Sequence record: NC_028448.1
DNA: 64,000 nucleotides
DNA from: Escherichia phage slur14
Reading direction: 5' to 3' (one strand)
Shown: positions 3,327 to 12,986 of the stretch, in pieces
How the letters are laid out: every line of letters starts with the position of its first letter
Position numbering within the stretch: the first letter of the stretch is position 1
The notes under the pieces: generated by a model
Database searches by the model: none
What the model saw: the letters and a program-made list of their open reading frames with translations, nothing else
Told to the model about the DNA's origin: nothing
Position numbers and translations under genes: made by a program

Positions 3327-3592
3327 TAATATTTTTCCTCTGGTTGGAACACAGCACGACAAGCCCACATACTGGCTTCTTTGAGTTTCGTTTTAGCAAT
3401 AGTTAACTGATCGAGGCTTTCGGCGTAATTCTTCGCGAGTTCATCATCTTCACAGCTATCAAATGCTTCCCAAAATTCATCGTATAAAGCATCAAAGATA
3501 AGTCCTAAACGAACTTCAGCGTCTTTAATAGCATTTACTTTACCGATTTTTTCGTCGGTATGTGGCTTATAACCTTTAATATCTTCAATCAT
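3326..3592 (-). CDS. hypothetical acidic protein (T4 vs.4 position)
   Basis: ORF-track 3326..3628 starts at TTG; ATG at 3592 preceded by GAGGAAG RBS. Confidence 0.5.
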
Positions 3593-3806
3593 ATTTGACT
3601 TCCTCACCAGTACATAAATCGTATTCAACTAAACGAATAGGTTCATGAATGCCATATCCTTGAACAGAAATTTCTGTAGTAGGATAAATTCCATTAATAT
3701 CACCCATGTTCCATGCTTCGTTAAATTGCTGTTCGCCTGAATTACTAAACCATTCGGCGAAAGCATTTAGCACATCTTTAGAACCTTCAATAATTATCTT
3801 TGCCAT
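3585..3806 (-). CDS. hypothetical protein (T4 vs.5 position)
   Basis: 73-aa ORF with ATG start; 1-nt overlap with the upstream stop. Confidence 0.5.
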   Translation of the reverse strand: MAKIIIEGSKDVLNAFAEWFSNSGEQQFNEAWNMGDINGIYPTTEISVQGYGIHEPIRLVEYDLCTGEEVKYD

Positions 3807-4168
3807 TACAAACTCTCAGTAAAGGTACGAGCGATAACGTCGCGCTGCTGTTCCGGAGTCAGAGAGTTAAAGCGAACTGCATAACCGGATACACGGATGG
3901 TCAGCTGCGGATATTTTTCCGGATGCTTAACTGCATCTTCCAGAGTTTCACGACGCAGAACGTTAACGTTCAGGTGTTGACCACCTTCAATTTTAACTGT
4001 AGGCTGTTGCTCAATTTCAATTTCACGGGCATGCAAACCGTAGAAAATTTCTGGGTCTACAAAAGAGTCCTCTTTAAAGGTTTTAGAGACAATAATTCGT
4101 GCTTGAATACCATCTTCAAAATAAATAGTACCTTTATGTGTGCCTTCAAGAATTTGATATGCTTTCAT
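3806..4168 (-). CDS. autonomous glycyl-radical cofactor, GrcA/YfiD-like (T4 vs.6 position)
   Basis: 120 aa; C-terminal half ...[60 protein letters not shown] matches the glycyl-radical domain of E. coli GrcA / PFL C-terminus as recalled. Confidence 0.85.
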
Positions 4169-4175
4169 ATAAACC

Positions 4176-4556
4176 TCAATTAGAAAATAAATTTATCCAA
4201 GATTGTTCTTTGATTAAAAATGGCTCAGAATCATATGCCATTAAACTCTGTGTGATTAGTCCTTTAAAAGGCCCATCAATAAATTCCATGGTAAAATATG
4301 GAATTTTATTCATTAGCCGTGCATTAGGAGCAGTACACAAAACTCTGCATCCTTTGAATACGCCTTTTTGTAATTTGTATTGCTTAGGATAAAATTCGCT
4401 CAAGACGTTGTTATTTGCCAAAATTTCAAAATGATTCACCAATTTATTTTTAATAGTTTTTGGCGAAAAATAAAGATATTCGAAAAGCTGAGTGTCTGTC
4501 ATCATTGCATTCCGATTACGAAAAACTGTGGACGAGTAATACCACCAATGCAACAT
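4176..4556 (-). CDS. hypothetical protein (T4 vs.7 position)
   Basis: 126-aa ORF with ATG start; collinear position. Confidence 0.45.
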
Positions 4557-5089
4557 TTAATATTACAGCAGCAGTGTACAGTGTCAATATGGACACTATA
4601 AATCTTATCCATATCAGGAGATTTGACAGGCTCATCAATTATATACAAAATTCGCGAAAGCGATAAACCTCTGAACTTGCTTCCTTTATTACCAATAAAA
4701 CTGCGCACAGAATCAGTAAATAAACGAAAACGTATATCATCATTAGAATAACGCGAAAATTCCTTTTTAATGTTATTTGCAGAAATTTTAGCGTAAGCTG
4801 AAGTATTAGAAAGAACAATAACTGTTCCGCCATCATACAACCAATTAGCAGCAAAGTTAGTCACAGCAATTGATTTACCAGATTGACGTCCACCATCTAG
4901 TCGAAGTGTGCAGTACTGTTTAAGTAATTCTTCAAATGGCGGGATATAATCGTTTTTACAAATTTCTTCTACTCTAGCATCAGAATGGTGTGTAAAAGCA
5001 TTCATCAGGGATAGATAAGGACCAGTTAAAAATGTTCTCATTTTATTCTCTCTAAATTTGGGCCATTCCATGGCGCATGAATTGTCCAT
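4502..5089 (-). CDS. hypothetical P-loop protein (T4 vs.8 position)
   Basis: 195-aa ORF; Walker-A-like GGRQSGKS; start codon uncertain (ATGs at 5089, 5071, 5041). Confidence 0.5.
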   Translation of the reverse strand: MDNSCAMEWPKFRENKMRTFLTGPYLSLMNAFTHHSDARVEEICKNDYIPPFEELLKQYCTLRLDGGRQSGKSIAVTNFAANWLYDGGTVIVLSNTSAYAKISANNIKKEFSRYSNDDIRFRLFTDSVRSFIGNKGSKFRGLSLSRILYIIDEPVKSPDMDKIYSVHIDTVHCCCNIKCCIGGITRPQFFVIGMQ

Positions 5090-5194: not shown

Positions 5195-5668
5195 TTATTT
5201 GAATGATTTGACGTACTGAATAGAACCTTTACTATTCACGAAAGCGATTTTACCATTTTTATTATACATGGTAGCAGTACGCTGATAGCCATAAGTTTGT
5301 TTACCAGATTGATAACCAACTAATGCGAAATTATCTTCACCCATTTTATTCTGTTTAGCGCGAATACGTTCATGACCGTGTGCCATAAGAACCTTAGCAT
5401 CACCAGTTGAAATTGATCTACGAGTTTTTTCATCTTCAACTGTATTAACAAAGTCGTCAAATGAATCAAATTTAGCATGGGATTTATTATACAGTTTTCC
5501 ATCTACTGCATAATTATATCCCTGTACATCCATCTCAACTTCTGTACCATCATCCAATACAGCAGTAATTTTTTGACCTTTTTTAAATTTCAAAAGATCA
5601 GTAAAAGATTCAGCAATAATTTGAGAATTAATAGCTGCTTCAGTGATAAATTCTTGATATGTTTTCAT
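5195..5668 (-). CDS. internal-protein-like protein with capsid targeting sequence
   Basis: 157 aa; N-terminus MKTYQEFITEA... with ITE|A and IAE|S motifs typical of gp21-processed T4 internal proteins. Confidence 0.6.
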   Translation of the reverse strand: MKTYQEFITEAAINSQIIAESFTDLLKFKKGQKITAVLDDGTEVEMDVQGYNYAVDGKLYNKSHAKFDSFDDFVNTVEDEKTRRSISTGDAKVLMAHGHERIRAKQNKMGEDNFALVGYQSGKQTYGYQRTATMYNKNGKIAFVNSKGSIQYVKSFK

Positions 5669-12041: not shown

Positions 12042-12117
12042 TGGTCGAGGCAGTAGGGATCGAACCTACGACCTAGGACTTAGAAGGTCCTTGCTCTTCC
12101 TTCTGAGCTATGCCCCG
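12042..12117 (-). tRNA. tRNA-Arg (anticodon UCU)
   Basis: Hand-folded cloverleaf; anticodon loop CUUCUAA; T-arm GTAGG-TTCGATC-CCTAC; CCA encoded. Confidence 0.85.
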
Positions 12118-12121
12118 TAAT

Positions 12122-12197
12122 TGGGGTGACCGATGGGAGTCGAACCCATGACTACGAGAATCACAATCTCGAGTTCTACCAACTGAACTACGGCCAC
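12122..12197 (-). tRNA. tRNA-His (anticodon GUG)
   Basis: Acceptor GTGGCCG/CGGTCAC, discriminator C73, anticodon loop UUGUGAU, T-loop TTCGACT, CCA encoded; no encoded G-1. Confidence 0.7.
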
Positions 12198-12311
12198 ATT
12201 AATACCTACTCCAACAATCAAGATGTCTTCACACGAAATTAAGAGAAGAGTGATCAGTTCAACCCCTATAATCGCGTCAAGTAGATATTAATGTGACAGT
12301 TGTCACAAATT

Positions 12312-12386
12312 TGGCGGACGTGATAGGATTCGAACCTATAACCAATCGCTTAACAGGCGATCGCTCTGCCATTGAGCTACACATCC
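12312..12386 (-). tRNA. tRNA-Asn (anticodon GUU)
   Basis: Anticodon stem-loop ATCGC-CUGUUAA-GCGAT; T-arm ATAGG-TTCGAAT-CCTAT; CCA encoded. Confidence 0.7.
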
Positions 12387-12390
12387 AAAT

Positions 12391-12477
12391 TGGTGGGGAG
12401 TGGTGGAGTCGAACCACCCGAGTCGCAATGACAATGAATTTACAGTCCACACCGCTACCTCTACGGGATAACTCCCC
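12391..12477 (-). tRNA. tRNA-Tyr (anticodon GUA), long variable arm
   Basis: 87 nt; anticodon loop CUGUAAA; 16-nt variable arm resembling bacterial tRNA-Tyr; anticodon stem has two G-U pairs. Confidence 0.55.
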
Positions 12478-12486
12478 AAATTAATT

Positions 12487-12561
12487 TGGTGGCCCTGGGT
12501 GGAATTGAACCACCATCTGGCGATTATGAGTCGCTTGCTTGAACCTTCCAGCTACAGGGCC
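12487..12561 (-). tRNA. tRNA with anticodon CAU (Ile2-type or Met)
   Basis: Acceptor GGCCCTG/CAGGGCC; anticodon loop CUCAUAA; T-arm GGTGG-TTCAATT-CCACC; one A-C mismatch in the anticodon stem. Confidence 0.65.
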
Positions 12562-12562
12562 T

Positions 12563-12638
12563 TGGTGCTGATTGACGGAATCGAACCGCCGACGTCCTCA
12601 TTACAAGTGAGGTGCTCTACCTACTGAGCTAAATCAGC
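12563..12638 (-). tRNA. tRNA-Thr (anticodon UGU)
   Basis: Anticodon stem-loop CCTCA-CUUGUAA-TGAGG; T-loop TTCGATT; CCA encoded. Confidence 0.8.
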
Positions 12639-12644
12639 AAAAAC

Positions 12645-12734
12645 TGGCGGAGGCGATAGGATTTGAACCTATGAGTCGCCGGAGCGACTGCCGGTTTTCA
12701 AGACCGGTGCATTAAACCACTCTGCCACGCCTCC
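12645..12734 (-). tRNA. tRNA-Ser (anticodon UGA), long variable arm
   Basis: 90 nt; anticodon stem-loop CCGGT-CUUGAAA-ACCGG; long variable arm; T-loop TTCAAAT; CCA encoded. Confidence 0.8.
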
Positions 12735-12736
12735 AG

Positions 12737-12810
12737 TCTCCATACAAGGATTTGAACCTTGGACCTCCTGATCCCAAATCAGGCGCTCTACCAAACTGAG
12801 CTACACGGAG
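12737..12810 (-). tRNA. tRNA-Pro (anticodon UGG), 3' CCA not encoded
   Basis: Anticodon stem-loop CCTGA-UUUGGGA-TCAGG; T-loop TTCAAAT; 2-nt spacer to tRNA-Ser, so CCA must be added after processing. Confidence 0.8.
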
Positions 12811-12820
12811 TAAATTAAAT

Positions 12821-12894
<74 letters not shown>

Positions 12895-12899
12895 AAATT

Positions 12900-12986
12900 T
12901 GGTGCGAGAAGTGGGACTCGAACCCACAAGGAAATCATTCCGCAGCATTTTAAGTGCTGTGCCTTTACCAATTTGACCATTCTCGC
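12900..12986 (-). tRNA. tRNA-Leu (anticodon UAA), long variable arm
   Basis: 87 nt; anticodon stem-loop CAGCA-CUUAAAA-TGCTG; long variable arm; T-arm GTGGG-TTCGAGT-CCCAC; CCA encoded. Confidence 0.8.

Follow-up and report, generated by a model that had tools for sequence, protein, structure and literature searches.

The window analysed here is a stretch of 64,000 nucleotides from Escherichia phage slur14 (sequence record NC_028448.1). A homologue of T4 vs.6 lies near its start, as a member of a tightly packed array of minus-strand genes. The features of the locus, numbered by position in the window, are listed below.

3585-3806, minus strand: vs.5-like gene, directly downstream of vs.6 (open reading frame list and slur03 annotation)
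3806-4168, minus strand: vs.6 (Y06I) coding sequence, 120 amino acids plus stop codon (open reading frame list), predicted autonomous glycyl-radical cofactor
3806-3815, minus strand: 3' end of vs.6, the last three codons and the stop codon, GAG AGT TTG TAA
3816-3990, minus strand: host-identical tract of 175 nt, corresponding to gene nt 179-353 and codons 60-118, which encode the structured glycyl-radical domain
3881-3895, minus strand: RVSGY motif, residues 92-96 (motif scan), with the codon for G95 at 3884-3886
3992-4168, minus strand: 5' half of vs.6, AT-rich (34% GC), with ~50% nucleotide identity to E. coli grcA
4174-4177, minus strand: Shine-Dalgarno sequence GAGG, 5 nt before the vs.6 ATG and overlapping the vs.7 stop codon (read from the sequence)
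4176-4505, minus strand: vs.7-like gene, directly upstream of vs.6 with a 7 nt gap (open reading frame list and slur03 annotation)
4560-4587, minus strand: sigma-70-like promoter match, TTGACA-16-TAATAT, upstream of vs.7-vs.6-vs.5 (a consensus match only)
5195-5668, minus strand: 157-residue open reading frame lying between the vs.8-like gene and denV; slur03 annotation 'internal virion protein'

The stop codon of vs.6 overlaps the start codon of vs.5 as TAATG. The promoter match upstream of the three genes scores 10 out of 12, and sites of this kind are no more numerous in the region than expected from shuffles. More generally, a promoter and terminator scan of the region returned consensus-level matches only, without enrichment over shuffles, and an Rfam search gave no match near vs.6. 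The 2.2 kb surrounding vs.6 are 100% identical to the corresponding region of the Escherichia phages slur03 and slur08 (Tequatrovirus), in which the gene is annotated as 'autonomous glycyl radical cofactor GrcA'. The exact protein has been recorded from 167 contigs, and homologues are found in 1,587 phage records. Elsewhere in the window, at 12042-12986 on the minus strand, lies a cluster of ten tRNA genes (Arg-TCT, His, Asn, Tyr, Met/Ile-CAT, Thr, Ser, Pro, Gly, and Leu), nine of which are recovered by Rfam. Within this cluster, the tRNA-Tyr region (12388-12480) has an 88% identical counterpart in the tRNA-Tyr of an E. coli plasmid record, and 219 plasmid matches were counted in the search.

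The product of vs.6 resembles GrcA (also known as YfiD). Pfam PF01228 (Gly_radical) matches residues 60-101 with E=2.5e-18, and the best PDB match is 6OWR, E. coli GrcA/YfiD (E=9e-42, residues 22-120). The pyruvate formate-lyase (PFL) structure 1H16 is also matched (E=5e-26), with residues 58-120 aligned to PFL 697-759. An earlier note on this DNA had placed a GrcA/YfiD-like glycyl-radical protein at these coordinates, with no strand given, and the open reading frame, the Pfam match, and the structural match agree on this. The same note described the C-terminal ~60 residues as the conserved domain, which is borne out by alignment: residues 61-120 are identical (60/60) to E. coli GrcA 68-127, and the C-terminal domain shares 49 of 63 residues with PflB 697-759. 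The radical glycine is retained within RVSGY as G95, which aligns with GrcA G102 and PflB G734 (residue numbers from PMC12338860). The 25-residue peptide quoted in the earlier note corresponds to residues 92-116.

The N-terminal half is far more divergent, at ~30% identity to GrcA, and is nevertheless homologous: residues 21-59 reach 16 bits with an HMM built from the N-terminal halves of bacterial GrcA proteins, where 500 shuffled sequences score at most 4.6. Because of this divergence, the NCBIfam equivalog model TIGR04365 ('spare_glycyl'), which aligns to residues 20-120, gives 154.9 bits and falls below its trusted cutoff of 170. PFL-type models match just through their last ~65 positions; TIGR01255 (PFL), for example, has a cutoff of 994 bits, of which the protein reaches 89, and is covered at model positions 680-744 only. 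PHROG 1209 (phrog_1209) matches the full length of the protein and carries no function. A single-sequence AlphaFold2 model has a mean pLDDT of 34.8, too low for the model to be of use. Upstream of the host-derived tract, codons 50-55 (window 4003-4020) encode an acidic EIEIE linker. Its length varies by phage, from REIEIEQQP in the window to REIEIEIETQP in VIPECOOM03 and REIETQP in OES_C-2 (loci L084 and L184), which suggests slippage in GAAATT repeats.

Taken as a whole, the protein has what is expected of GrcA: it is small and stand-alone, has no glycyl-radical-enzyme barrel, and combines a C-terminal Gly_radical domain containing RVSGY with a homologous N-terminal region. The C-terminal domain of PflB (693-759) is the same module of beta-strand, Gly loop, and helix, and is cleaved off by oxygen. 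Vs.6 differs from PflB in lacking the ~760-residue ten-stranded catalytic barrel with Cys418/Cys419. Nor does it show BLASTP similarity to the C-terminal radical domain of NrdD, the anaerobic (class III) ribonucleotide reductase, with its RRTCGYLG context and preceding Cys-rich region. Its identity with the glycyl-radical family is far beyond chance and, judged by sequence, it is the orthologue of T4 vs.6/Y06I and a GrcA/YfiD-type autonomous glycyl-radical cofactor, the gene itself being already known. Across phage records the gene has been labelled 'pyruvate formate-lyase', '2-ketobutyrate formate-lyase', 'ribonucleotide reductase subunit', 'putative acetyltransferase-related protein', and 'hypothetical', and PHROG 1209 is still listed as of unknown function despite biochemistry dating from 2001. 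The 'pyruvate formate-lyase' labels are misnomers. The gene call is routine in that it confirms a known accessory gene of the T4 family, and it sets right the many records that loosely call the gene a 'pyruvate formate-lyase' or a 'ribonucleotide reductase subunit'.

As the earlier note recognised, a gene of this kind is already known from T4-type genomes, the one in T4 being vs.6, or Y06I (UniProt P13316). The T4 protein is identical to the window protein at 118 of 120 residues, and its gene occupies the same position in the vs-regB-vs.3-vs.4-vs.5-vs.6-vs.7-vs.8-denV block and also has a 3' tract of E. coli grcA DNA. The two substitutions in T4 are Q54P and R73H, so the radical domain of the window protein resembles GrcA even more than its T4 counterpart does. 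E. coli GrcA (6OWR) is likewise a small stand-alone protein, with the same C-terminal 60 residues, the radical glycine in RVSGY, and a homologous N-terminal half; the window protein is seven residues shorter. The two also differ in expression: vs.6 belongs to a phage early transcription unit, whereas grcA is under the host's own regulation, which is FNR- and acid-controlled. vs.6 is non-essential in the laboratory, and we know of no vs.6 mutant with a phenotype in vivo.

Wagner et al. (2001), as reported in PMC8683613, found that PFL activase activates both E. coli YfiD and T4 Y06I and that oxygen-cleaved PFL is thereby reconstituted; that account describes YfiD and T4 Y06I as the only two validated spare-part proteins. 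In YfiD, residues 61-127 form the structured domain, a duplicate of PFL 693-759, while residues 1-60 are disordered yet required for binding and activation. As the N-terminal half matters for the binding of YfiD to cleaved PFL, the phage protein could differ from it in detail. The radical passes from GrcA G102 to PflB C419 (PMC12338860). During T4 infection, vs.6 (P13316) is represented by early RNA and a middle-class protein (PMC9697503 supplements).

A role for Vs.6 in infection may be proposed on this basis. The protein would be made early, with a C-terminal domain of beta-strand, Gly loop, and helix that amounts, at the protein level, to the GrcA domain of the host. When oxygen cleaves host PFL at Gly734, Vs.6 would dock onto its cleaved form, and G95 would receive a radical from PflA, the activase of the host, which would then pass to Cys419 of PflB. 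PFL activity would thus return and restore the fermentative supply of acetyl-CoA and ATP. Since T4-type shutoff of host expression would stop the synthesis of new GrcA, the phage would supply its own copy. The in vitro steps were demonstrated by others for T4 Y06I; we infer the benefit during infection. The best explanation of the locus overall, and one that we consider highly probable, is a PFL spare part of the GrcA/YfiD type whose 3' 175 nt have been repeatedly overwritten by host grcA. Such a spare part would be aimed at a central fermentation enzyme of the host and not at a phage reductase, and PFL as a target would suit a phage replicating in the oxygen-fluctuating gut after host expression has been shut off.

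Two other functions were weighed against this one. The earlier note had suggested that the client is the phage's own anaerobic ribonucleotide reductase, whose gene it correctly placed outside the window (tblastn of the window). Vs.6, possibly activated by NrdG, would then serve the phage class III NrdD as spare part or radical donor and would sustain dNTP synthesis under micro-oxic conditions. NrdD is also a glycyl-radical enzyme and is likewise cleaved by oxygen at its radical glycine. GrcA-like genes, moreover, lie inside nrd clusters in two distant phage lineages. In Aeromonas phage Ah1 (L176:2367-5666) the order is nrdA-nrdB-x-nrdD-nrdG-vs.6-nrdC-nrdH, with the start of vs.6 overlapping the stop of nrdG. 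The jumbo Yersinia phage fHe-Yen9-04 (L179:2779-7043) has nrdD-x-GrcA-like-x-x-nrdG, an arrangement of nrdD, GrcA-like gene, and nrdG that is shared by its IMG/VR relatives. Further GrcA-like vs.6 homologues within nrd clusters were observed at L118, L120, L121, and L135. Among the phages whose annotations were inspected, T4, Ah1, fHe-Yen9-04, and STG2 all encode NrdD besides a vs.6-like gene, and the same suggestion was made by Nolan et al. (2006). The sequences themselves point elsewhere. BLASTP of Vs.6 against the C-terminal 166 residues of T4 NrdD detects no similarity (E=23), whereas the Vs.6 domain is 100% identical to that of GrcA and 78% identical to that of PflB, and the radical domains remain PFL/GrcA-like even in the nrd-cluster homologues, where nrdD is adjacent. 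In T4, as in the present phage, vs.6 lies ~17 kb from nrdD/nrdG, in the T5-like phage STG2 the vs.6-like gene is far from nrdD, and in Vibrio phage QD01 it has no nrd neighbours; the domain is PFL/GrcA-like in STG2 and QD01 too. The clustering may instead reflect a co-regulated set of anaerobic genes, and we read it as an 'anaerobic toolkit' association. The biochemistry reported for Y06I in PMC8683613, moreover, concerns PFL and PFL activase. Service to NrdD is therefore weakly supported, by nrd-cluster context in other phages and not by similarity, and we regard it as unlikely; the earlier note was probably wrong about the client enzyme, though the nrd-cluster context leaves room for some connection with the anaerobic module.

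The other possibility is that Vs.6 acts against the host as a decoy, soaking up PflA or occupying PFL and so redirecting pyruvate and formate metabolism. The divergent N-terminal half corresponds to the region of YfiD needed for binding and activation, and binding could accordingly differ from that of GrcA. Against this, the catalytic glycine and the entire radical domain are identical to those of a functional host protein, and Y06I is reported in PMC8683613 to reconstitute PFL, not to inhibit it. A decoy function seems to us very improbable, and repair of PFL stays the preferred role.

The nucleotide sequence of vs.6 is a mosaic, a feature that the earlier note had missed. Gene nt 1-178 align with E. 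coli grcA at ~50% identity, and at nt 179 there is an abrupt switch: gene nt 179-353 and E. coli grcA nt 200-374 share 100% identity, the longest exact run being 175 nt. Beyond this tract, the last three codons, GAG AGT TTG in the phage and GAA AGC CTG in E. coli, differ at synonymous positions only. The GC content of the last 186 nt is 48%, against 34% in the 5' half. When the 64-kb window is compared with E. coli chromosomes by megablast, the tract is the sole match. All 5,426 complete E. coli genomes (5,426/5,426) match it, at 97-98% over 185 nt, and a grcA allele identical to its core is found in roughly two-fifths of evenly sampled E. coli rows.

Several origins for this tract were considered. 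The 3' end of pflB, which encodes the same type of domain, is only 80% identical to the tract, so grcA and not pflB is the donor. Contamination during assembly was rejected, as the tract is present in 637 independent records, T4 included. Transfer from phage to host was likewise rejected: the divergence of E. coli grcA from that of other enterobacteria is equal in both halves of the gene, and the tract is nearer to E. coli grcA than the Citrobacter (92.5%) or Salmonella (84.4%) genes are. This uniform divergence, together with the position of the tract nearest to E. coli grcA, points to the E. coli chromosome as donor and the phage as recipient, and we also counted the host-like GC content of the tract in favour of this direction. 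As the N-terminal half is still that of a GrcA homologue, vs.6 would be an old phage copy of the gene whose 3' part has been overwritten.

The E. coli-type tract was counted in phage records at >=95% identity. The 637 records that carry it (95.1-99.5% identity to E. coli) share the same 5' boundary, and the match always covers grcA nt 200-384 and never extends beyond. Between slur03 and a Mosigvirus-like phage (L099) there are 17 differences in the 5' 177 nt of the gene and none in the tract, the L099 tract having zero differences from both slur03 and E. coli. Comparison of slur03 with Mosigvirus G2285 gives 70-73% identity in the flanking genes, 90% in the 5' half of vs.6, and 98.3% in the tract, which is thus decoupled from the divergence of the phage DNA around it. 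The differences in the 5' half comprise 11 synonymous and 7 non-synonymous changes; next to 11 such synonymous changes, the zero seen in the 58 tract codons of L099 has a Poisson probability of ~2e-5 under common descent. At the other edge, the three terminal synonymous sites show mixed combinations of phage and host states in T4, L095, L097, OES_C-2, and G2285, and in OES_C-2 the host-like sequence extends to the stop codon.

There is also variation within the tract. Six synonymous changes are private to PD112, which is closely related to slur03. An IMG/VR Tequatrovirus contig (L096:778-963) has 213G and 240C, each of which is an E. coli polymorphism; the two were seen in different strains (O157:H7 NE1127 and HS-01), and none of the 5,426 E. 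coli genomes has both. The use of distinct E. coli alleles as donors for different E. coli phages is suggestive only. Conversion does not appear to be universal, since no Salmonella-derived tract was found at >90% identity in the phages tested, and Slopekvirus (Matisse), Karamvirus (CC31), RB43-like, Aeromonas, and T5-like phages are 72-84% identical to any host and have no recent tract.

Klebsiella phages provide a second instance. A first comparison with the grcA loci of 80 GTDB species, a set that did not include K. pneumoniae, gave the impression that these phages are unconverted. This was overturned by a degenerate-pattern scan of metagenomes, which recovered grcA loci from bacteria (64) as well as phage loci (5), and in which the commonest bacterial allele encodes exactly the K. 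pneumoniae GrcA protein (GRCA_KLEP7). With this commonest K. pneumoniae-type allele, three Jiaodavirus-type phages have exact runs of 158 nt (L200), 146 nt (L168), and 140 nt (L119), compared with 31-32 nt for E. coli grcA. The 5' edge of their tracts is the same as in the E. coli phages. In the tract region the grcA genes of E. coli and K. pneumoniae diverge by 12% at the nucleotide level, and the encoded proteins read LEDAVKH in E. coli and LLDAVEH in Klebsiella. The donor allele also appears to vary between sister phages. AM_K5 departs from the commonest allele at six sites, at five of which it agrees with another Klebsiella allele, and L200 and KP179 differ at 2 positions in the 5' half and at 11 in the tract. 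Two metagenome contigs, OIEZ01001054.1 and OIEZ01000100.1 (L261 and L210), contain bacterial grcA copies with aberrant 3' ends; the copy in L261 ends in a PflB-like C-terminus (…NSLTKEQQQDVITRTFTQTM), from either gene conversion between grcA and pflB in the bacterium or an assembly chimera.

Read from these alignments, the pattern indicates repeated gene conversion from host to phage at the 3' tract of vs.6. The donors would be E. coli for Tequatrovirus and Mosigvirus and the K. pneumoniae complex for Jiaodavirus, with different Klebsiella alleles in sister phages. A single old acquisition, held by strong selection and spread by recombination between phages, would explain the shared 5' boundary of the 637 records at grcA nt 200 and the private changes in some phages (six in PD112; 95.1% identity to E. 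coli at the lowest). T-even phages recombine freely in co-infection, which would assist such spread. The shared boundary is expected in any case, because homology with the host gene ends there. Identity with the host extends to synonymous sites, and selection on the protein cannot explain this, given that the E. coli and Klebsiella domains are nearly the same despite 12% nucleotide divergence. Two phage genera that have accumulated 17 substitutions in the adjacent 177 nt, moreover, both show zero relative to E. coli in the tract, and Klebsiella phages have Klebsiella-type tracts, with different alleles in sister phages. We therefore consider a single acquisition improbable. Exchange of the tract between co-infecting phages could still explain part of the pattern within a host genus.

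Repeated conversion, the reading that we prefer, has a plausible route. T4 recombination acts on short homologies, and markers can be rescued from plasmids. Fragments of the host chromosome would be present early in infection and could recombine with vs.6. The homology between phage and host is confined to the conserved radical domain, which would give a fixed 5' edge and a ragged 3' edge at the stop codon. A tract identical to that of the host is in turn a better substrate for recombination, so the phage copy would tend to stay in step with the current host. We are much less sure that the matching to the host is adaptive, since it may follow neutrally from homology. A literature search, whose reach stopped short of the primary papers of 2001 and 2003, returned no account of a host-identical tract in vs.6. 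We lean modestly towards the joint proposition that vs.6 is a recurrent recombination target, its glycyl-radical half being overwritten from the grcA gene of the current host, and that this has not been described before.

A parallel is found in the photosynthesis genes psbA and psbD of cyanophages, which undergo intragenic recombination between host and phage. Like vs.6, these are host metabolic genes carried by a phage that trade patches with host alleles. Unlike the cyanophage case, the recipient here belongs to a lineage of virulent coliphages that contain hydroxymethylcytosine and degrade host DNA, and the patch corresponds to one structural domain and follows the host genus, E. coli or Klebsiella. 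The tract and its Klebsiella counterpart would mean that T-even phages in nature continue to recombine with the chromosome of the host, whose DNA they degrade, at any site with ~150-200 nt of homology. The rate, tract length, and host-tracking of conversion would thereby become directly measurable and, if this is true, the tract could mark the recent natural host of a phage isolate.
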